Below are positions 5,651 through 56,029 of a DNA stretch of 64,000 nt, one piece after another. Source of the DNA: a bacterium (GTDB lineage: Bacteria; Patescibacteriota; Dojkabacteria; JAKAPS01; JAJZLI01); NCBI GenBank assembly GCA_021816845.1, contig JAKAWT010000001.1, positions 6,087 to 70,086 on the forward strand, given 5' to 3'. Positions within the stretch are counted from its first letter, which is position 1; every line of letters begins with the position of its first letter. The notes under the pieces are model-generated. The model did not search any database, was not told the DNA's origin, and worked only from the letters and a program-made list of their open reading frames with translations. The position numbers and the translations under genes were made by a program.

Positions 5651-6268
5651 CTACAACATTTTAGACTGTTTTCTTAGAAAATCTTTTACCTCATCCCAGT
5701 TTACATTGTATATAAGATTGATTGGAGTCTCATCTTCATCAGCAATATCAAAAAATGTTAGGGATTTTATATAGTGAAACTCATTCAAACTACTTTCACT
5801 AAACTTTTTATGAAAAACATCAAACAAATCTGTTATTGAATAATAATCCTTTAAAATAAAATAGAGATCATAAAAATCTTTTTTTACTCCCCTACTCCCA
5901 ATCGCTATGATCTTCATAAGGGCAATATCTTTTATTGATGCTAAATAAATACCTTTATACATTTTTCTCTTATCAACTAAGGGGTATTGGTAAAGAAAAA
6001 AACTTATCTCACAACCATCTGTAAATCCACGTAAGCTACCATCCGTTATAGTAACATCATGTAATTTAAATACCTTGTCAAGAGATTTTAATAAAACTGG
6101 ACTTTTGAATATATCAGGTGTAAAAAAATCCAAATCATAAGAAATTCTATGTCCAATTTGTAAAGATAAAGCTGTTCCTCAAGCAAGGTAGAAATTATTT
6201 ACAGCTTTGATATCTTTTAGTAAGGCCAGAGCACTTTTTGCTCCGGTATTGACTGTTTTGTCAAACAT
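5651..6268 (-). pseudogene. AbiEii/DUF1814-family nucleotidyltransferase (type IV TA toxin-like), disrupted by an in-frame TGA
   Basis: In the frame of the 160-aa ORF, ATG at 6266-6268 gives MFDKTVNTGAKSALALLKDIKAVNNFYLA*GTALSLQIGHRISYDLDFF... The TGA sits where the first Gly of the GGTAL motif is expected. The C-terminal KKDFYDLYFILKDY matches the family's conserved KDxYDLyyLL block. Confidence 0.5.
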
Positions 6269-7290: not shown

Positions 7291-9237
7291 CTATAAATTT
7301 ATTGATAGATCCTTTGTTATATAGAATGATTTATTCAAGGATGTAGATCCTGATCCAGAGGATCCTGATCCAGATTCAAAATTAATCTTCTCCCATTCTC
7401 CTTTAATTCCTGGTTGCTTTTGAATTAAATAATGAGTCATATTAATTCCTTTAGGTAGATAGTATGTTATTGTCATGGTACCCTTTGCTGGAGGATCTGA
7501 CTTTGAAAGACGAGGAAGTATCCTTATATGGTTACCAAAAACTGTTTTTCCTACAGTTGTATTGTTATAATCCTGCGTGAATCCATCAACGCCTTTCATA
7601 GATATTAGGGTGGATCCAAGAGGAACATAAATCCTAACCCACGCCATATATGGACCTACAAGCCAATTATCATATATAGCTGGATTAGTCCAAGTTATAC
7701 TAACACTCTGCTCATATCTACCATTTGATGCTTTTTTAATATTTGAAACCACCGTCTCTCCCATAAAATAATTATCTTTAGCTCCTGCAAGGTTTGCTTC
7801 CACTACCTGAAGATAATCACCTTTTACGGAGGTTGGTATTACCCCTCCCCAGTTATAATGGTTAATTAGATTCTCAGTCTTTGGGTTATTGAAATATAAT
7901 AAGATTTGTTTTTGATCAAGAGAATCAAAAACTGTTTTAATAACATTTGTTAAAGTATTACCTGTAGAATGAAACACTTTTGTTATAAGTTCATGCATCA
8001 TGACTGAAATAAAATCTTTTCTTTCATTTTGAGGAAGATTAGATTTTTCAGCCATATATTCCATATAGTAATTAGCATTATTAGATGTTAAAACAAGATT
8101 ATTCCCATATAAACTTGGCATTGTAATATTTCCAACAGCTTTTATCAGAGAATCTACAAACCATGTATTTATAAAAATAACCCCATTAATTTGTGGAGCT
8201 CTAGGTATTGAATTATAGAATTTATATATATTAGCTACAGATGTTGGAACATTAGGAGAAGTATTTGCATCCCTTAGATGCCAGTGGTAAGTTCCGTTAT
8301 AAACATATAATGGTTTTGGAGCAAGAGGTACGTAATGGACTACGTTTGATAGAGCATAAATATTTTGAGCTGATATTTGGCCTAAATTTCCATTATTAAA
8401 ATTAATAAATCCAAAGGCAGTCATAAAACCTCCCGTAGGTCTAATTTCGCCTGAATTTTGGAACATCAGAAGATACCTCGTAGGGGTAGGTACACCTAAT
8501 GCATTTTCAATAACATTTACTGATCTATCAAAGATTGGTAAATTTAACGATATACCGGAAAAAATACTTTTTAAAGAAGATAAGGTTATACCATGAGACT
8601 TTAATAAAGATTCTGGGAAATAATTAGGATTTATCTTTTGTATATATAAATTTGCTTTTGTAAAATATGGATCAGCTGTATCCAAGGCTGGACCAAGTTT
8701 TGGTAAGGAATGTACAAATGCAGATATCTTTTGTTTTCCAGATAGAACCTGTGCTGATTTTTGAGTACTTGTTTGATATCCATCTAGTGTTGCTAGATTT
8801 GACAAAGATGGCATCAAGGTTTGCAACCCAGAAACAGCATAATATCCCCCATCAAGTAAATCTACAGCATTGTTATAATATCCACTCGCTATGGGCACAA
8901 TAGAAAGATACCCTAAAGTTCTTAAATTCGACTGCATAGAGATTATATTAGACTTAATTGTAGGTACTTCACTAGAAATCCCAACAAAATCTTTTGATTT
9001 CTGATAAGTTTTTGCTTTCTCAATATTGGAATATAGAATATCAAAGTTACTTTTTAAAGATAAAAGAGGAAGAACTAGAAAGAAAACTAATAGTATTATT
9101 AATACTACAACAAAGGACACAGTAGCAATAAACCACCTTTTTTTTATAAAGGCCCATTTTTGTTTAGGCTGATATTGAGCTAAATTTATAACTGTCATAA
9201 CTGATTTAGTAAGCTCCTCTTTTTGAGAAAACTGCAA
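7291..9237 (-). CDS. large membrane-anchored extracytoplasmic protein, possibly DUF4012 family (associated with polysaccharide clusters)
   Basis: 648 aa. N-terminal TM helix at about residues 33-58. C-terminal SGSGSSGSGS linker encoded by GGATCC-type palindromes. Sits first in a sugar transferase/GT4 cluster. Confidence 0.4.
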   Translation of the reverse strand: MQFSQKEELTKSVMTVINLAQYQPKQKWAFIKKRWFIATVSFVVVLIILLVFFLVLPLLSLKSNFDILYSNIEKAKTYQKSKDFVGISSEVPTIKSNIISMQSNLRTLGYLSIVPIASGYYNNAVDLLDGGYYAVSGLQTLMPSLSNLATLDGYQTSTQKSAQVLSGKQKISAFVHSLPKLGPALDTADPYFTKANLYIQKINPNYFPESLLKSHGITLSSLKSIFSGISLNLPIFDRSVNVIENALGVPTPTRYLLMFQNSGEIRPTGGFMTAFGFINFNNGNLGQISAQNIYALSNVVHYVPLAPKPLYVYNGTYHWHLRDANTSPNVPTSVANIYKFYNSIPRAPQINGVIFINTWFVDSLIKAVGNITMPSLYGNNLVLTSNNANYYMEYMAEKSNLPQNERKDFISVMMHELITKVFHSTGNTLTNVIKTVFDSLDQKQILLYFNNPKTENLINHYNWGGVIPTSVKGDYLQVVEANLAGAKDNYFMGETVVSNIKKASNGRYEQSVSITWTNPAIYDNWLVGPYMAWVRIYVPLGSTLISMKGVDGFTQDYNNTTVGKTVFGNHIRILPRLSKSDPPAKGTMTITYYLPKGINMTHYLIQKQPGIKGEWEKINFESGSGSSGSGSTSLNKSFYITKDLSINL

Positions 9238-34569: not shown

Positions 34570-35544
34570 TTAATAGTGATATGCCAATCCTGCTACAGTG
34601 ACAGCATTATCTGTACATAATTCTATTGGAGGGAAATACAGGCTAAATTCATCCCTGTACTTTTCAAATTCTTTTCTTATCCTTAAATTTGCAGCAACCC
34701 CTCCAGCTATTGTGATTGTATTTATATTAAGAGTTCTTGCTGCTTTTATAGTTTTCCTAACTAATATATCTGCAACTGCAAACTGAAATGATGCAAGTAC
34801 ATCTTCCCTATTTACACCTTTATGACTTTTCATATAATATAATACTGACGTTTTCAACCCTGAGAATGAGAAATTAAAATCATTAGATCCTATCATTGGC
34901 CTTGGAAAATCTACAAAATTTTCATTACCAGAATCAGATATCTTTGATATATGTGGTCCTCCAGGATAAGGTAGTCCAAACATTCTTGCAACCTTATCAA
35001 ATGCCTCCCCTGCTGCATCATCAACAGTTTGACCTATAACTTCCATGGATGTTGCTGATAATACTTTTATTATCTGAGTATGACCTCCAGATATTAGTAG
35101 AGAAATATGTGGAAACTCTATATTAGGATTTGTTAGAATATTAGCATATACATGAGCATATAAATGATTAATATTAACAATTGGTAAACCTTTTGTCTTG
35201 GATCTAGATCCCCAGGATCCAGATCCCTTGGGTCTAGACCCCTTGGCAAAGCCATGGGCAAAAGAAACCCCTACTAATAAGGCTGGAACCAATCCTGGAT
35301 TCAGGGTTACAGCTATCTTTGAAATTTCAATATTAGAATTTCTATTTATTATCTTATCAATTAATAGTGGTAAAACTTCAATATGCATTCTTGAGGCTTT
35401 TTCAGGAACAACTCCACCAGTATCAACATGATCTTGAGAAGATAACAGAGAATCTATTATCACAAAACCATTCTTTACTATTGCAACTCCAGTATCATCA
35501 CAAGATGTTTCAATGCCTAATATATTAATATCACTTTTTTTCAT
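34570..35544 (-). CDS. tsaD: tRNA N6-adenosine threonylcarbamoyltransferase TsaD, with a low-complexity insertion
   Basis: N-terminus ILGIETSCDDTGVAIV; His pair (HLYAHVYA); about 16 extra aa (KGSRPKGSGSWGSRSKTKG) relative to canonical TsaD, encoded by GGATCTAGATCC-type palindromes. Confidence 0.85.
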   Translation of the reverse strand: MKKSDINILGIETSCDDTGVAIVKNGFVIIDSLLSSQDHVDTGGVVPEKASRMHIEVLPLLIDKIINRNSNIEISKIAVTLNPGLVPALLVGVSFAHGFAKGSRPKGSGSWGSRSKTKGLPIVNINHLYAHVYANILTNPNIEFPHISLLISGGHTQIIKVLSATSMEVIGQTVDDAAGEAFDKVARMFGLPYPGGPHISKISDSGNENFVDFPRPMIGSNDFNFSFSGLKTSVLYYMKSHKGVNREDVLASFQFAVADILVRKTIKAARTLNINTITIAGGVAANLRIRKEFEKYRDEFSLYFPPIELCTDNAVTVAGLAYHY

Positions 35545-36056
35545 AATGTTTTTATGTATAGAGGAAGTACATATAAAGGATCATCAAATTCTCTACTCTT
35601 TATTTTCCTTTTTATAATTTTAAAAAAAATATTATAATCTAGCTCAATAGGTATAAATTCCTCATCATGTATAATTTCATAACCTTTAACGTTGGATCTA
35701 GATTCTGAGGATTTAGATCCATTTTTTATAAATATATTTCCCCTTCCTGCAGATACAATCTCAGGCTTTCCCATTTCTTTGAGTACATCAAATGATGATA
35801 TAGCCACAATAGGAGTTTTCCTTGCAAGTGAGTATCCTTTAACATAAGCTAGAGATGCTCTAGTACTTGTAAAAGAACCAGGCCCTTTATTAATACCTAT
35901 AAATCTCACGTTACCAAACACATCGAAAATATTGTCTAGAGATAAGAATACATTATTAAGTTCACCTTCAAACTTTTTTTCAACCTTATCATCCTTATAT
36001 AAAAAACATTTTAGTTTATCTTTTGTAGCATCAATTATTAAGATTTCCATATTCAA
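35541..36056 (-). CDS. tsaB: tRNA threonylcarbamoyladenosine biosynthesis protein TsaB (YeaZ-like, short)
   Basis: 171 aa; FIGINKGPGSFTSTRASLAYVKG; adjacent to and overlapping tsaD and tsaE. Confidence 0.65.
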   Translation of the reverse strand: MNMEILIIDATKDKLKCFLYKDDKVEKKFEGELNNVFLSLDNIFDVFGNVRFIGINKGPGSFTSTRASLAYVKGYSLARKTPIVAISSFDVLKEMGKPEIVSAGRGNIFIKNGSKSSESRSNVKGYEIIHDEEFIPIELDYNIFFKIIKRKIKSREFDDPLYVLPLYIKTL

Positions 36057-36635: not shown

Positions 36636-37067
36636 TCAATACCTTTTTAAATTTCTATTTATAATTCTCTGCAATATAGTATTCCCATACTTATACCTAT
36701 TCAAATTTCCCAAAGATAAATTAATTTCATCCTTTATATTTTTTGGGATCTCATTCCATGATTTTATATCTGTTTTTTTTAAGACTAAATTTTCAGCTAA
36801 TATATTAGCTTCTCCTTTATTGATTTTTAATTTTAAAAGAATACTGACTACCTCACTACGAACTTTTAAAAGTCTATACATGTACCTAAATTCATAAAAC
36901 AACTTTGTTGTGTAAAAAGCTATAAAAAGTACAATAGCAACGTAAATTACAGACAAATAAAAATTTAGGTGTACTACACTCTCATATGCATTATATGTAA
37001 AATATATTCCTACTACTATGAGAGCAAATAATATAAGGGATTTAATTCTTTGATCGTTTTTGCTCAT
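36636..37067 (-). CDS. membrane protein (2 TM plus cytoplasmic tail), last gene of the cyt b-like operon
   Basis: 143 aa; preferred over the antisense ORF 36628..36897; overlaps the upstream gene. Confidence 0.4.
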   Translation of the reverse strand: MSKNDQRIKSLILFALIVVGIYFTYNAYESVVHLNFYLSVIYVAIVLFIAFYTTKLFYEFRYMYRLLKVRSEVVSILLKLKINKGEANILAENLVLKKTDIKSWNEIPKNIKDEINLSLGNLNRYKYGNTILQRIINRNLKRY

Positions 37068-38028
37068 TATAGAACCTTCTCCATATAATCTTATACACTG
37101 GTATTATGTATGGTATCCTACGTAACCCAGGAATTAGGGGTAGAAATGTAATGATTGCAATCAGCAGAGAGAAAGTTGCAAAGGCCATAAGATCTGCTGC
37201 TGGTGAATTAGCATAAAAAGGTGTTTGGTATAAAGATGTATAAAATACAAGCCACCAAGGACCAGGATAAGGACCAGTTTCTTTTAATATACCCCACTCT
37301 CCTCCAAGCATATTTAGACTCGCAGCCTTAGCTTGCAGTGGTGCTCCTTGAAGGAATAGTAATCTATTTTGTTCATTATAGGTATATACTCCATTATTAT
37401 CTACATTTTCTCTTGTCAATGCTCTTGAGAACAAACCACTTTGTCCTAATTTTAAAAGTTCATTTAACATTTGTACTACTGGTCCATAGTTACCATTAGG
37501 AAATATAACAAGCCCATCTTCATATCTAGCATTAGGAAGAGCTTTTAGGGTATTCTGTTCCCAAATATTTTGTTGTCTTTTTGTTGCATTATTATATTCG
37601 TTAAGTATTAAACTGATGTTAGGGTTAATACTTGATTCCATCTGCAATGGAATTATCACAAAATCATTTTTTGTATTAATTGGCAATGTTACTCCTTCAA
37701 TACCTCCAGGCGATATTGGCCCTATATTTTGCGCTGTGCCATTGTTATTAAATGGAGGTCCATATGTTGCAATCGCACTTGTACCCATAAGATCATGTAG
37801 TGTAGTTGTAACAAAACCAATTGGGTGATTTTTAGCATACCCTCTAACTGATAAAGGTGGGGTATTAGGAGATTTTAGAAATATAGAAAGCAGTATAACT
37901 AAAACTATAATCGCAATAAAGCTCACAGATGCTTCTTTCACTAAATCTGATTCTTTCAAACCTATATTTTGTGAATCTAGACTCCTTGAGTCAAGACTCT
38001 TTGTATCAACATTTCTATTATCCATCAT
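37042..38028 (-). CDS. cytochrome b C-terminal-domain / subunit IV-like protein fused to a large Cys-free extracytoplasmic domain
   Basis: N-terminal TM, about 230-aa ectodomain, then PGPWWLVFY (PEWY-like Qo motif) and 1-2 TM helices; overlaps the cyt b6-like gene by 11 nt. Confidence 0.4.
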   Translation of the reverse strand: MMDNRNVDTKSLDSRSLDSQNIGLKESDLVKEASVSFIAIIVLVILLSIFLKSPNTPPLSVRGYAKNHPIGFVTTTLHDLMGTSAIATYGPPFNNNGTAQNIGPISPGGIEGVTLPINTKNDFVIIPLQMESSINPNISLILNEYNNATKRQQNIWEQNTLKALPNARYEDGLVIFPNGNYGPVVQMLNELLKLGQSGLFSRALTRENVDNNGVYTYNEQNRLLFLQGAPLQAKAASLNMLGGEWGILKETGPYPGPWWLVFYTSLYQTPFYANSPAADLMAFATFSLLIAIITFLPLIPGLRRIPYIIPVYKIIWRRFYNEQKRSKN

Positions 38029-38611
38029 AACCTATTGGAGGTACAACATTTTTGCTCCTTATAAAATATAAATGTATCACTAAAAGCAAAATTAAAACTA
38101 AAGGTAGAATTACTACATGCAATCCATATACCTGACCGTTATCTAATATATTAAAAAAGAATGTCGCTCCTATAGCATTCATAGCGTCTTTAGCTTGTAC
38201 CTGATTCCATTGGGCAAAAAACCCTCCTCCCATTAAATATCCCATAAAAGCTTCAAACATAGATATACCAAATAGTAAGGATCCACTTATCCATGTAATT
38301 ATTCTTCCTTTTCTCCATCCTGCTATAAAAAAATTTGTAAGAAAATGTACTGTCATAAAGAAAAAGAAAACTTGGGCTGCCCAAAAATGCATAGACCTAA
38401 AAAAGAATCCTATTTGTGAGTATTGATACCATATAGGACCTTCATAAACCATAATAATTCCTGTAATTATAAGTGTCACAAAACAAGCAAGGGTCAAAGA
38501 TCCAAACATATAAACAAATGAAGATACATATATTGGTAATTCTTCTGGAAGGAGTGTGTCTGGGTCTAAATCTTTTTTTATTCTTTTTTTAAGTTCACTT
38601 GTCAGATTCAT
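38018..38611 (-). CDS. cytochrome b6-type (N-terminal four-helix, di-heme) subunit
   Basis: Helix B FRSMHFWAAQVFFFFMTVHF (His spacing 14) and helix D LHVVILPLVLILLLVIHLYF (His spacing 15) align with b6/QcrB. Confidence 0.7.
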   Translation of the reverse strand: MNLTSELKKRIKKDLDPDTLLPEELPIYVSSFVYMFGSLTLACFVTLIITGIIMVYEGPIWYQYSQIGFFFRSMHFWAAQVFFFFMTVHFLTNFFIAGWRKGRIITWISGSLLFGISMFEAFMGYLMGGGFFAQWNQVQAKDAMNAIGATFFFNILDNGQVYGLHVVILPLVLILLLVIHLYFIRSKNVVPPIGYDG

Positions 38612-38793
38612 TCTCTTTCTTTTTTGATTTCTTGCTTTCGAATGATGGATATGGAAGAATTATTGCTACTATAAATACAACTATCAATAATCCATATATA
38701 AAAATATCTATAGCTAAAGACGACGTCATAATAGAGTTACATTACTATCAATTATGAGTTTTGTCAATAATAAATCTGAGAGTAATTAGAATC

Positions 38794-39348
38794 CTAATTT
38801 TTAAATGCAATAATTTGATAAAAATTTTCTGATATATCTTGTACTTTAATATCTGAAAAATTGGTTCTTTTTAATAGCTCTTCTGCCTCAGTTTCAGATA
38901 ATCTTATACTCAATGGAGGTCCCATTTTTGTATCTTTCTTCTTCCAATCAAAATCAACTAATTTACCTTTATTTTTTAACATTGAAAAAGAGTTTTGTAA
39001 AACTTTAAAAGGGTCTTTAAAATCATGTAATACTGTACCAAGGAAAATAATGTCTGCAATATTTTCTCCCCCTAAAAAATTCTCACCCTCTGATATAACA
39101 GTCTCTATATTATTAATACCATTATCCATAATTTTATTTTTGAGTCTCTCTATAGCAGTAGAATCTATATCAATAGCATAAACCTTACCATTTAACCCCA
39201 CTATTTTAGATGCAGGAACAGAGAAAAATCCATCGTTTGATCCTATATCTATAAAGGTATACCCCTCTTTTAAACCTATACTTTTAAGTATTTTAAAAGG
39301 GTCTTGAATCTTTAATCTTATCTCTTCGTTATATTGGAATTTATGCAT
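38794..39348 (-). CDS. class I SAM-dependent methyltransferase
   Basis: Motif I FIDIGSNDGFFS and motif II region; 184 aa. Confidence 0.6.
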   Translation of the reverse strand: MHKFQYNEEIRLKIQDPFKILKSIGLKEGYTFIDIGSNDGFFSVPASKIVGLNGKVYAIDIDSTAIERLKNKIMDNGINNIETVISEGENFLGGENIADIIFLGTVLHDFKDPFKVLQNSFSMLKNKGKLVDFDWKKKDTKMGPPLSIRLSETEAEELLKRTNFSDIKVQDISENFYQIIAFKN

Positions 39349-39450: not shown

Positions 39451-39768
39451 ATGGAAATTAATCAAATACAAAATAACGAAACCTTAGAAGAAACATTACC
39501 AGGAGTAATAATGCTCATGGGAAAAGGAGACCCTTGGAAAGATGAAGCTGAAATGGCTGCACTAAGATCAATGGCAACATCAACAGCACTGCTATGGCAC
39601 TTAGCTCCAGATTCAAGAAAGCCATATATACTGTCAACCGCAGCTAATATTGAAGATAGTGATAACCCTCAATGTCAAGAATACTCAGATGTTTTATCAT
39701 CGCAACTTTTAGATCTTGGATCTGGATCCCTTGGAATAGATCCTAAATATTTTATTTTTAGAGATTGA
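39451..39768 (+). CDS. hypothetical protein (GC-elevated, no homology recognised); possibly a gene remnant
   Basis: 105-aa ORF followed by non-coding sequence holding an acylphosphatase-like fragment (…GKGRIEIVAFHNKERVKKLLSFL) in another frame. Confidence 0.25.
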   Translation: MEINQIQNNETLEETLPGVIMLMGKGDPWKDEAEMAALRSMATSTALLWHLAPDSRKPYILSTAANIEDSDNPQCQEYSDVLSSQLLDLGSGSLGIDPKYFIFRD

Positions 39769-40024: not shown

Positions 40025-40098
40025 TTGACCTTGGCGGGATTCGAACCCGCGATCTTTAGGATGAGAACCTAATATCCTAGACCACTAGACGACAAGGC
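40025..40098 (-). tRNA. tRNA-Glu (anticodon CUC)
   Basis: Minus-strand GGCCUUG acceptor stem (G2.U71), D-arm UCGUCUAGUGGUCUAGGAU, anticodon stem UUAGG/CCUAA with loop UUCUCAU, T-arm GCGGGUUCGAAUCCCGC, discriminator A, no encoded CCA. Confidence 0.8.
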
Positions 40099-40158
40099 CA
40101 TATTGAAGATTATATATTAAGAATAATGTTTTGTGAAATCAATTGGTATTCAATATTC

Positions 40159-54229: not shown

Positions 54230-56029
54230 TCAAACTACATGTGGTTTTAGATCAATAATTTTAAGTTGTAGAGTGTGTTTATCTCTCCATATATTGTCCT
54301 CCAGAGTAAAAACAATATCAATATATGAAAAATTTATTATCTGATCAGGTTTATATATTGATGCAAACCACACAGCATCAAATATATTTTCTGAATTTTT
54401 ATCTGTAATTTTCATTTTTATAAAATTATCATTAGAACCTATATTAAATACTGACAATACTTCAGCTCCGGTAATTTTAAAAATAGGTACAGTATTCCCC
54501 CTACCATGAGGTTCTAAAATCTTAATTTTATGGAGAAAATCAAAATTTATATCGCCCAAAGATATCTCAGTATCTACATAAACTACTTTAAAGTCATTTT
54601 CAAGATTTAAGGATTTATTAAAATATGTTTTTGCAAATTTATTAAGTTCAAGGTGCAATTTCTCTATATTTTCCTTTTTTATTTTCAAACCACAAGCTCC
54701 AGCATGCCCACCATACGATTCTAAAATATTTGAGGATCTAGATCTTAAGGATCCAGATCCTGAGGATTGGTCTAGTGCCTCAATAATATTAAATCCATCT
54801 ACAGACCTTCCTGAGCCTATATACAGATCACCTTTTTTGGTTAGTGCAATAGTAGGCTTTCCGGTATCAGATGTTAGTCTACCTGCAACAAGGCCTACAA
54901 TACCTTCATGCCATGTATCATCATAAACAAGATTGAAAAAATTGTTTTTATCGATTTTGGATTTAGCTTGCTCTACAGCATACTTTGTTAACTTTTGCCT
55001 TTCAATATTCATATTATGTAATTTTTTTGATAATTTCTCTGCAACTTCTTTACTTTGTGTATTTAATAATCTAACCCCATCTAGAGCATCATATAATCTT
55101 CCTGTAGCATTAATCTTAGGGCCTAATATATATCCTATCTTATAAACGTCAATATTATCGATTTCAGATATACTAATAAGTGCATCTAAACCTTTCCTCT
55201 TTCTCATATTAATAACATTAAGACCTTTTTTTACAATTGATCTATTTTCTAGAGTTAGATTAGACACATCACAAACAGTAGCCAACGTAGCAAGATCATA
55301 ATATTCACTTATATCAAAATTTTTATATGAAGATGTTTTAGATAATGCCTCAACAATTTTCAATGCAACTCCTGCCCCACATAAATCTGGATAGTTATAA
55401 CCTATCATAGGATGAATTATTGCATATGCACTAGGGAGGATTTCAGGAGGTAGGTGGTGATCTGTAATTATAAGGTCTATTCCTAGATCTTTAGCAATTT
55501 TAGCATTCTCAACATCTCTAATACCACAATCTACAGTTATAATTAGAGTTATACCTTCTTTCGCTGCTTTTTCTATCTGATCCTTATTAAGACCATATCC
55601 ATCCGTAAATCTGGACGGGATAAATGGTCTTACATCAGCTTTCATCTTGTTATATAGAAAATCCCATAAAATTGAAGTTGCACATATACCATCAACATCA
55701 TAATCTCCATAAATCTGTATTTTTTCCCTGGATCTAGATCCATGAGACTTTACAGCTTTATTTATTCTCATAACAACACGTTTCATATCTTTAAATTTAT
55801 AGGGATCTCTATTTTTTAATATCACAGGATCTATTTCATCATAAAGAAAAGCTTTTAACTCCTCTAGACTAGAATCTTTTTTTAATATACCTCTGTTATA
55901 TAAAAGTTGGATTATAATATCATCCAAACTTAAATCTCTATATAAAGATTTATCATTTTGATTTAAATCCTTTATATCTAGGTCCAGACCCAGGTCTGTT
56001 ATTTTAGGGTATAATTTCCATTGAGCCAT
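54230..56029 (-). CDS. recJ: single-stranded-DNA-specific exonuclease RecJ
   Basis: DHH motifs (YGDYDVDG, DLIITDHH), DHHA1 region; two low-complexity palindrome-encoded insertions. Confidence 0.8.
   Translation of the reverse strand: MAQWKLYPKITDLGLDLDIKDLNQNDKSLYRDLSLDDIIIQLLYNRGILKKDSSLEELKAFLYDEIDPVILKNRDPYKFKDMKRVVMRINKAVKSHGSRSREKIQIYGDYDVDGICATSILWDFLYNKMKADVRPFIPSRFTDGYGLNKDQIEKAAKEGITLIITVDCGIRDVENAKIAKDLGIDLIITDHHLPPEILPSAYAIIHPMIGYNYPDLCGAGVALKIVEALSKTSSYKNFDISEYYDLATLATVCDVSNLTLENRSIVKKGLNVINMRKRKGLDALISISEIDNIDVYKIGYILGPKINATGRLYDALDGVRLLNTQSKEVAEKLSKKLHNMNIERQKLTKYAVEQAKSKIDKNNFFNLVYDDTWHEGIVGLVAGRLTSDTGKPTIALTKKGDLYIGSGRSVDGFNIIEALDQSSGSGSLRSRSSNILESYGGHAGACGLKIKKENIEKLHLELNKFAKTYFNKSLNLENDFKVVYVDTEISLGDINFDFLHKIKILEPHGRGNTVPIFKITGAEVLSVFNIGSNDNFIKMKITDKNSENIFDAVWFASIYKPDQIINFSYIDIVFTLEDNIWRDKHTLQLKIIDLKPHVV

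Follow-up and report, generated by a model that had tools for sequence, protein, structure and literature searches.

Cytochrome b is the ancient core of the bc1 and b6f complexes, where it is normally tied to a Rieske protein, and in canonical complexes the Rieske gene lies adjacent to that of cytochrome b. In the PetB/PetD pair of the b6f complex and in QcrB/QcrC of Bacillota the cytochrome is split: a four-helix subunit of approximately 200 residues is followed by a second gene that supplies further helices. PetG, PetL, PetM and PetN are small subunits with a single transmembrane (TM) helix. Other cytochrome b homologues work without a Rieske protein. Among them are the ExtP/Cbc-type cytochromes b of Geobacter and the SoxC subunit of the SoxABCD oxidase of Sulfolobus, whose electrons go to multihaem cytochromes c or a haem-copper oxidase from neighbouring genes. 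The Escherichia coli protein CybB (cytochrome b561) is a stand-alone di-haem four-helix bundle that acts as a superoxide:ubiquinone oxidoreductase, with a small-molecule reaction on the outer side and a quinone reaction on the inner side; the superoxide mechanism is said to have been worked out by Lundgren and colleagues in 2018. The subject of this study is a four-gene operon in a 64-kb stretch of DNA, referred to here as the window (positions 6,087 to 70,086 of contig JAKAWT010000001.1, Dojkabacteria assembly GCA_021816845.1), which encodes a short cytochrome b and an overlapping partner subunit with a large extracytoplasmic domain.

The reading preferred here, to which we give about an even chance on the strength of sequence comparison and structural models, is that the operon specifies a self-contained, Rieske-independent transmembrane electron-transfer complex. 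Its predicted core is a b6-type four-helix cytochrome b that holds two b haems with bis-His ligation, one towards either side of the membrane, and no haem cn. Judged from the gene content of the family, the unit includes neither a Rieske protein nor a c-type cytochrome. The features concerned are the following.

38595..38729, minus strand: 44-residue subunit with a single TM helix; its stop overlaps the cytochrome b start by 17 nucleotides
38018..38611, minus strand: cytochrome b, 197 residues, four TM helices; 11-nucleotide overlap with the partner gene
38072..38389, minus strand: codons of the haem-ligand histidines (H75 38387-38389, H89 38345-38347, H165 38117-38119, H180 38072-38074)
37042..38028, minus strand: partner subunit, 328 residues, two TM helices; 26-nucleotide overlap with the 143-residue reading frame
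37279..37866, minus strand: extracytoplasmic domain of the partner, residues ~55-250, from an AlphaFold2 (AF2) model and TM calls
37249..37269, minus strand: YPGPWWL motif of the partner, residues 254-260, at the outer (p-side) membrane interface; positional counterpart of the PEWY/Qo motif
36636..37067, minus strand: 143-residue two-TM protein, starting inside the partner end (26 nucleotides)
38739..38767, minus strand: TTGACA-17-TAATGT, a possible but unsupported promoter ending 9 nucleotides before the ATG of the 44-residue frame

The cytochrome b open reading frame (ORF) matches PF13631 at 50.8 bits (cutoff 27) and PF00033 at 45.9 bits (cutoff 27.2). A profile of 18 homologues (alignment A1, on which conservation was judged) retrieves cytochrome b6 as its best match in the PDB (1q90_B, E=2.8e-18): chloroplast and cyanobacterial b6 proteins rank first, followed by actinobacterial QcrB and then by the cytochromes b of bc1 complexes. 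The protein contains exactly four histidines, H75/H89 with a spacing of 14 and H165/H180 with a spacing of 15; all four are invariant in the 18 homologues and line up with the b6 ligand histidines in the HMMER alignment to 1q90_B. Equally invariant are two pairs of glycines, G37/G51 and G110/G124, with 14 residues between the members of each pair, which we take to be the haem-packing glycines of cytochromes b. Because of the Pfam matches, the b6 match in the PDB and the invariant His and Gly quartets, the 197-residue ORF is assigned by sequence as a genuine two-haem cytochrome b of the b6 lineage. The position of b6 Cys35 (FYCIGG) is occupied by M, S, L or F (VYMFGS) in all 18 homologues, and since the Cys of the CxGG motif is replaced the family is predicted to lack haem cn. 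The p-side cd-loop, QWNQVQxKDAxN, with invariant Q134, W135, Q139, K141, D142 and N145, departs from the canonical PWDQ/PWGQ. By model scores the protein fits none of the named subfamilies: the top NCBIfam match is ExtP at 64 bits (cutoff 290), the b6 model PRK03735 gives 59.4 bits (cutoff 325), SoxC 30 bits (cutoff 740), and the QcrB model also falls far below its cutoff.

An earlier sequence-only reading of the window had described a split cytochrome b6-type module, and this description stands: b6 is the best PDB match, a separate partner gene follows 3′, and the likeness to b6/QcrB, the 14- and 15-residue His spacing and the ITW…SFGVTGY-like segment (here ITWISGSLLFGISMFEAFMGYLMGG) are all confirmed. 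The same holds for the overlap of the partner ORF with cytochrome b, for the PGPWWLVFY motif (partner residues 255-263), for the lack of Cys in the 328 residues of the partner and for the overlapping 143-residue membrane protein, which has two TM segments and is kept in Patescibacteria relatives. The absence of Rieske, cytochrome c and oxidase genes from the 64 kb was likewise upheld, by motif scan and Pfam labels, and for Rieske and cytochrome c partners it extends to the family as sampled in 88 loci.

This absence was assessed at two scales. The genome sequence inspected amounts to ~82 kb, that is, the window and up to 10 kb past each end; the neighbourhood survey covers 88 loci at ±6-10 kb each, with all ORFs clustered. 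No Rieske motif (CxH...CxxH) is found in the window, and none of the 88 loci contains a credible case, the single pattern match (L015) being judged a chance occurrence by inspection alone. Pfam labels within the window and 10 kb on each side reveal no Rieske, cytochrome c, oxidase or other respiratory gene; what they do reveal are tRNA synthetases, SecA, TsaBDE, glycosyltransferases, histidine kinases, a Na+/H+ exchanger, RecA, DnaB and the like. The only CxxCH in the window belongs to ribosomal protein L31. Across the 88 loci this motif is confined to L31 (two Patescibacteria loci) and to seven ORFs of five other loci, which form no recurrent family. Neither an Ndh2 nor a quinone-biosynthesis gene is present within the ~82 kb.

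The four minus-strand ORFs overlap head to tail in the order peptide, cytochrome b, partner and two-TM protein, and simple hydropathy, applied to all four products, predicts 1, 4, 2 and 2 TM segments, nine in total. Cytochrome b and partner are the only gene clusters widely common to the 88 loci: cytochrome b is found in 66, the partner in 82 and the next largest cluster in 16, and the partner gene adjoins cytochrome b on its 3′ side in nearly all of them. The two proteins are fused in P0065 and in more than 100 proteins of Ktedonobacteraceae; natural fusions also occur among some Actinomycetota-like proteins, and in P0071 and P0123 peptide, cytochrome b and partner form one chain. The module forms a free-standing operon of two or three genes in Proteobacteria, Ignavibacteriales, Mesoaciditoga and Spirochaetia. 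Overlapping ORFs, shared clusters, the upstream peptide and the fusions together mark the module, at the level of sequence, as one functional unit.

The 44-residue peptide has its TM segment at approximately residues 7-25, followed by LPYP and a Lys-rich tail. Homologous small ORFs lie directly 5′ of cytochrome b in Patescibacteria, Bacillota, Proteobacteria, Dormibacterota, Ignavibacteriales and Mesoaciditoga. The small upstream ORF proposed earlier is thus real and kept across phyla, but its coordinates (38601..38729, ~43 residues) are corrected to 38595-38729 and 44 residues. At the other end of the operon, the 143-residue protein consists of a TM hairpin (residues 8-26 and 31-49) and a charged cytoplasmic tail. 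An ortholog of 119-143 residues follows the partner in 13 Patescibacteria loci, and a small hydrophobic ORF with one or two predicted TM segments does so in 49 of 82 loci. As the downstream two-TM proteins of different phyla are only weakly alike (hhalign probability ~12%), they are treated as positional analogues. The promoter suggested upstream of the operon is present as sequence at 38767-38739, but its −10 box agrees with the consensus at 3 of 6 positions and the site is absent from the list produced by a consensus scan, in which promoter-like sites of the operon region are not enriched (13 versus 19.2 ± 4.0 expected from shuffles). Since the scan omits the site and the region shows no enrichment, TTGACA-17-TAATGT is no evidence of a promoter.

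The family is large. A partner profile collects at least 1070 clusters (50% identity) from 1.84 billion representatives; in the GTDB species-representative genomes scanned, a search seeded with a 12-sequence subset of the 26-sequence partner alignment gives at least 563 loci, of which the 80 most similar to the acid-habitat query were retained. Hosts comprise Patescibacteria, Bacillota (Alicyclobacillus, Sulfobacillus, Sulfoacidibacillus), Chloroflexota, Dormibacterota and Actinomycetota, as well as Acidithiobacillus, Acidihalobacter, Sulfuriferula, Oricola, Ignavibacteriales, Spirochaetia and Mesoaciditoga. The partners from Patescibacteria fall into a single clade of a neighbour-joining tree; this clade is drawn from genomes of 25-59% guanine plus cytosine (GC), and the copies in it retain all invariant residues. 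This combination points to long-term purifying selection, and the single clade over so wide a GC range indicates that the module is old in Patescibacteria rather than a recent import. The window itself has a GC content of about 29%, and the closest relatives of its proteins come from genomes of Patescibacteria, or candidate phyla radiation (CPR); by these protein relationships the host is a small-genome member of that group, in agreement with the reduced genome surmised before. The sequence is found on a 484-kb contig of assembly GCA_027322105.1 and in GCA_027425355.1 as well.

Several organisms harbour more than one copy of the module (P0021 cluster; L019/L086; L028; L022/L026; L035/L042). 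Sulfoacidibacillus ferrooxidans encodes three cytochrome b paralogues within a single 90%-identity cluster, Alicyclobacillus mengziensis has two module copies ~20 kb apart, and one metagenome-assembled genome (MAG) carries two copies in opposite orientation at a single locus.

The partner subunit, whose conservation was judged on the 26 homologues, begins with a cytoplasmic tail (residues 1-32) and a TM helix (33-51), continues with the ectodomain (~55-250) and ends with a second TM helix (281-299) and a conserved basic amphipathic C-tail, IPVYKIIWRRFY. The earlier view that its first ~270 residues are all extracytoplasmic is not compatible with this topology, and the ectodomain is not an N-terminal fusion: it is inserted between the two helices of the partner. 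In the AF2 model the ectodomain is mostly helical, with a predicted local distance difference test (pLDDT) score of 75-98 over residues ~60-200. Invariant residues are distributed along the whole chain: D28, K31 and E32 before the first TM helix; Y89, G90, P92, P127, L128, P183, G198, L224 and G228 in the ectodomain; Y254, P255, G256, W259 and L260 in the YPG-x-x-W-L motif, where positions 257-258 vary (PW, QA, QS, QQ, AV); Y263, Y267, Q268, P270 and D279 after it; and P297, P300, P306, I315, W316 and Y320 in the basic C-tail. With no Cys in the ORF and no conserved His in the family, an additional haem or metal centre of the usual kinds is not expected in the partner. The protein has no Pfam or NCBIfam match, even when the 26 homologues are scanned at E<=10, no PDB match in a profile search, and no PDB fold match at E<0.1 in Foldseek; 31 close homologues were collected, and in public annotation the partner is a 'hypothetical protein'.

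Descent of the partner from subunit IV is plausible but unproven. The proposal that it represents a subunit IV-like half is favoured by its position after cytochrome b, by the fusions and by the order of its elements: n-side (inner) tail, TM helix, p-side loop, conserved Trp motif, short helix, TM helix and basic n-side tail. Low-stringency hhalign comparison, run on the full partner, its C-terminal part and an ectodomain-deleted construct with reversed and block-shuffled controls, is collinear with PDB-verified PetD sequences at probabilities of 2.7-8.9%. It pairs D28 with D35 of NDLLY, SP with EP at the end of helix E, PWW with PEW, YQIP with FQILR, and the PFIP end of helix F with VPFLE. 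Against the proposal stand the lack of a PF00032 match, these hhalign probabilities of at most 9% and the two TM helices of the partner, as compared with three (E, F and G) in subunit IV, so that helix G is missing. The two-TM protein that follows the partner in many lineages would be at best a candidate stand-in for helices G/H. The Trp motif also departs from the Qo consensus P-[ED]-W-[YF]: in Y-P-G-x-x-W-L only the Trp corresponds, Leu takes the place of Tyr/Phe, and the two preceding residues vary. Natural variants on record for the Qo motif are APWY, GPWY/GPWF and PPWY (PMC4122944), and the motif of the partner is not among them. Statistical homology of the partner to subunit IV or to the C-terminal part of cytochrome b was sought with Pfam, PDB profiles, hhalign and controls, and is not established.

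The natural fusion P0065 was modelled with AF2 (pLDDT 81.9, predicted template modelling score 0.78), and its domains pack together in the model. The TM helices of the partner rise from pLDDT 67-76 when modelled alone to 85-95 in the presence of cytochrome b, and a Foldseek search with the model places full-length cytochromes b on top, with 460-540 aligned columns. The helices of the partner may lie at the E/F positions of cytochrome b, but the fit to cytochromes b is good over only part of the chain, as detailed below.

A mechanism may be proposed on this basis. The products of the four overlapping genes would assemble into one membrane complex of nine TM helices, to which the partner would contribute two, probable counterparts of E and F of cytochrome b/subunit IV. 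Instead of a short ef loop there would be a cofactor-free helical domain of ~200 residues that forms a cap over the outer (p-side) face, and the two haems would carry electrons across the membrane. Invariant polar residues are present on both the n-side and the p-side. An inner site could be formed by W99, R100, R103 and R185 of cytochrome b together with D28, K31, E32 and the C-terminal IWRRxY of the partner, and might serve as a Qi-like quinone pocket or as a docking surface for a soluble reductase; an outer site would combine the invariant cd-loop, the YPG..WL motif and the cap. As there is no Rieske centre, a bifurcated Q-cycle would be impossible, and the complex would simply conduct electrons, either towards or away from a p-side quinone or some small external substrate. 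In fermentative Patescibacteria it would most plausibly provide a redox-balancing outlet that operates on scavenged haem. As a weak contextual hint, CPR bacteria in acid-mine-drainage sediments often possess Ndh2 and DmkA/B and are without known downstream electron-transfer components (PMC12153355).

A number of results weigh against a Rieske-independent complex built in this way. The hhalign score of 20.5 between partner and PetD is equalled by 7 of 60 block-shuffled controls, PF00032 matches none of the 26 partner members even at E<=10, and cytochrome b is not found in the PDB by a profile of the whole partner or of its C-terminal 90 residues. The Foldseek superpositions of the P0065 model have template modelling scores of 0.33-0.50 and a root-mean-square deviation of ~20 Å, which means that superposition is good over only ~200 residues. 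The ectodomain shows no conserved Cys or His and no recognizable cofactor or substrate site in the 26 homologues. Finally, the recurrent neighbours of the module (NarL/GAF-kinase, SQR-like, AhbD-like with VIT1, PAP2) include none that is universal and do not point in a single direction.

These neighbours are nevertheless informative for individual lineages. A NarL/LuxR-type response regulator adjoins the module in 16 loci from several phyla (including L036, L056, L065 and L081), seven of which also carry a GAF and HisKA_3 histidine kinase of NarX/DevS-like architecture; this suggests redox- or anaerobiosis-linked regulation in those lineages. A SQR-like flavoprotein lies near the module in seven loci. 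In four Bacillota loci (L057, L058, L041 and L038, from Alicyclobacillaceae and Sulfoacidibacillus) the module is followed 3′ by a TIGR04053 radical SAM/SPASM gene, the closest relative of the haem b synthase AhbD, and by a VIT1 iron transporter; in Sulfoacidibacillus Nramp and ferritin genes are close by. In related Patescibacteria the module is located between PAP2 and rpsF.

The corresponding slot of the present genome was also found, ~3.5 kb past the window end: a Ni-superoxide dismutase (PF09055) is followed there by an S24/S26 signal-peptidase-like protein (L090:5816-6630, ~window 67.1-67.9 kb), and the pair is flanked by a 187-residue ORF without Pfam match, in the position of PAP2 in relatives, and by rpsF-ssb-rpsR. 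The slot that holds the Ni-superoxide dismutase here is thus the one that holds the cytochrome b module in related Patescibacteria. Either accessory genes tend to accumulate at this site, or its two alternative occupants are related in function.

A more specific version of the Rieske-independent conduit is an extracellular outlet, in which electrons would pass from quinol, reduced for instance by an Ndh2-type dehydrogenase, by way of both haems to an external acceptor under the cap, such as soluble Fe(III) or flavins, and so reoxidize NADH for fermentative Patescibacteria of acid habitats. Many close relatives derive from acid-mine-drainage MAG series or from iron- and sulfur-oxidizing acidophiles (Sulfoacidibacillus, Alicyclobacillus ferrooxydans, Sulfobacillus, Acidithiobacillus, Acidihalobacter), and iron-related genes adjoin the module in Sulfoacidibacillus (Nramp, ferritin) and in the four Bacillota loci, Sulfoacidibacillus among them, that have VIT1 nearby. 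The CPR bacteria of acid-mine-drainage sediments, besides Ndh2 and DmkA/B, have FmnB, and they are without EetA/B and PplA (PMC12153355). The habitat signal is weak and biased, because the 80 retained loci are those most similar to an acid-habitat query. Members of the family are also plentiful among Ktedonobacteraceae and Dormibacterota from soil, and a marine Oricola has the family too. With no Ndh2 or quinone-biosynthesis gene in the sequence inspected and no conserved metal-binding motif in the cap, this version is considered unlikely.

A scavenger of reactive oxygen species analogous to CybB would use its outer haem to react with superoxide, or with some other small molecule that takes or gives electrons, and its inner haem to turn over quinone. 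A self-contained di-haem bundle without high-potential partners, hosts that are mostly aerobes of iron-rich or acidic habitats, and the invariant Lys141 in the p-side cd-loop would suit such a role, and the Ni-superoxide dismutase and S24/S26 protein in the PAP2-rpsF slot give a weak hint in the same direction. The synteny is explained equally well by an accessory-gene hotspot, and CybB is a member of a different di-haem family that needs no extra subunits, whereas the large cap found here would restrict access to the outer haem; a CybB-like role appears improbable.

Patescibacteria are generally without respiratory chains and haem synthesis, which lends some weight to a role outside electron transfer: haem sensing, haem storage or handling, or structural or transport use of a cytochrome b scaffold. 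The cap, with no ligands for redox cofactors, and the AhbD-like radical SAM gene next to the module in the four Bacillota loci would be in keeping with this role, as would the Trp-rich motif at the outer interface, which is loosely reminiscent of the WWD motifs of haem-handling proteins. The invariance of all eight residues for two tightly packed bis-His haems, and of residues on both faces, suits an electron wire rather than a haem-releasing carrier, and a non-redox function is accordingly rated as a poor prospect. Least probable is an ordinary Rieske/cytochrome b complex with Rieske and cytochrome c genes elsewhere in the genome: only ~82 kb were inspected and the cytochrome b is annotated automatically in source databases as a menaquinol-cytochrome c reductase subunit, but a credible Rieske motif is lacking within ±6-10 kb at 88 loci of many phyla, where CxxCH ORFs are sporadic, the cd-loop departs from canonical PWGQ/PWDQ, a 200-residue domain takes the place of the short ef loop, helix G is missing, and in Bacillota the module is an additional gene set present in up to three copies.

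Directly upstream of the operon and on the same strand lies a gene for a 184-residue class I S-adenosylmethionine-dependent methyltransferase (38794-39348, minus strand). It has a Pfam match of the UbiE/COQ5 family, and its best NCBIfam matches are of ArsM, CbiT or UbiE type, far below cutoff. A UbiE-like enzyme as a link to quinones was considered and rejected, as the best matches are generic, ArsM or CbiT-type and all far below cutoffs; on sequence grounds the gene is not a credible sign of menaquinone methylation. The sole RNA gene detected in the 64 kb is tRNA-Glu(CTC) at 40025-40100 on the minus strand.

The window also contains a strongly over-represented palindromic 12-mer, GGATCTAGATCC, with 20 matches at <=2 mismatches versus 2.2 expected, often in tandem with a spacing of 15 nucleotides (35200-35241, 35694-35720, 54734-54760, 55730-55741, 7339-7371, 39718-39729). 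The copies lie within coding genes (tsaD, tsaB and others) as short in-frame inserts rich in Ser, Arg, Asp and Gly. A degenerate copy at 37972-38004 (minus strand) encodes 'KSLDSRSLDS' in the cytoplasmic tail of the 328-residue partner, where it forms an insertion that homologues of 80-82% identity do not share. The element looks like a mini-repeat that spreads in frame through the genes of an AT-rich genome.

How far the module has been described before can be gauged from the literature. A full-text search found no functional study of the cytochrome b/partner family. Short cytochromes b from the Patescibacteria group, Saccharibacteria and Ktedonobacteria are listed as 'subfamily G' by Dibrova et al. 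2017 (PMC5600118), who also note orphan short cytochromes b of obscure function, such as the cyanobacterial subfamily K. The Patescibacteria group and Ktedonobacteria are hosts shared with the present family, an overlap at the level of taxa. Going by this listing, a cytochrome b in these taxa is already on record; the terms searched for in that article bring up no ectodomain partner, small subunits, fusions or Rieske-less operon.

The presence of the family in culturable bacteria, some of them with multiple copies (Alicyclobacillus, Sulfoacidibacillus, Acidithiobacillus sulfurivorans, Oricola), makes its function directly testable. For Patescibacteria, which are regarded as devoid of electron-transport chains, a di-haem protein that is conserved and vertically inherited implies that at least one lineage acquires haem and carries out some redox chemistry at the membrane.

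Among known systems the closest is the cytochrome b6/subunit IV pair, and the nearest functional analogies are ExtP/Cbc, SoxC and CybB. With b6 and subunit IV the module shares the split arrangement, the His spacing of 14 in helix B and 15 in helix D, the four haem-packing glycines and, in low-stringency hhalign, a Trp motif that pairs with PEWY of PetD; the 44-residue peptide invites comparison with the single-TM small subunits. The b6f complex differs in having a Rieske protein, cytochrome f or c, the CxGG Cys with haem cn, and PWDQ, all of which are lacking here, where the cd-loop reads QWNQVQxKDAxN. Subunit IV has three helices and a short ef loop, whereas the partner has two helices, an ectodomain of ~200 residues and no homology detectable by Pfam or hhalign. 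ExtP/Cbc and SoxC have the gene of a redox partner alongside, in contrast to the module, for which none was found in the window or the 88 loci. CybB belongs to PF01292 and not to PF00033, consists of a single subunit and has no cap, and its likeness is a working analogy only. A bolder interpretation, rather unlikely at present though less so than any of the alternatives weighed above, is that the module represents a novel class in which the Rieske and cytochrome c1/f branch has been replaced by a cofactor-free ef-loop ectodomain and two dedicated mini-subunits have been added. Such a class would move electrons straight across the membrane, out to or in from an external substrate, and might be the sole electron-transport component of a fermentative Patescibacteria episymbiont, running on haem, and perhaps quinone, from its host or environment. 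A widespread Rieske-free cytochrome b with a cap and mini-subunits of its own would differ both from the Q-cycle enzymes and from the Cbc/Sox-type complexes.

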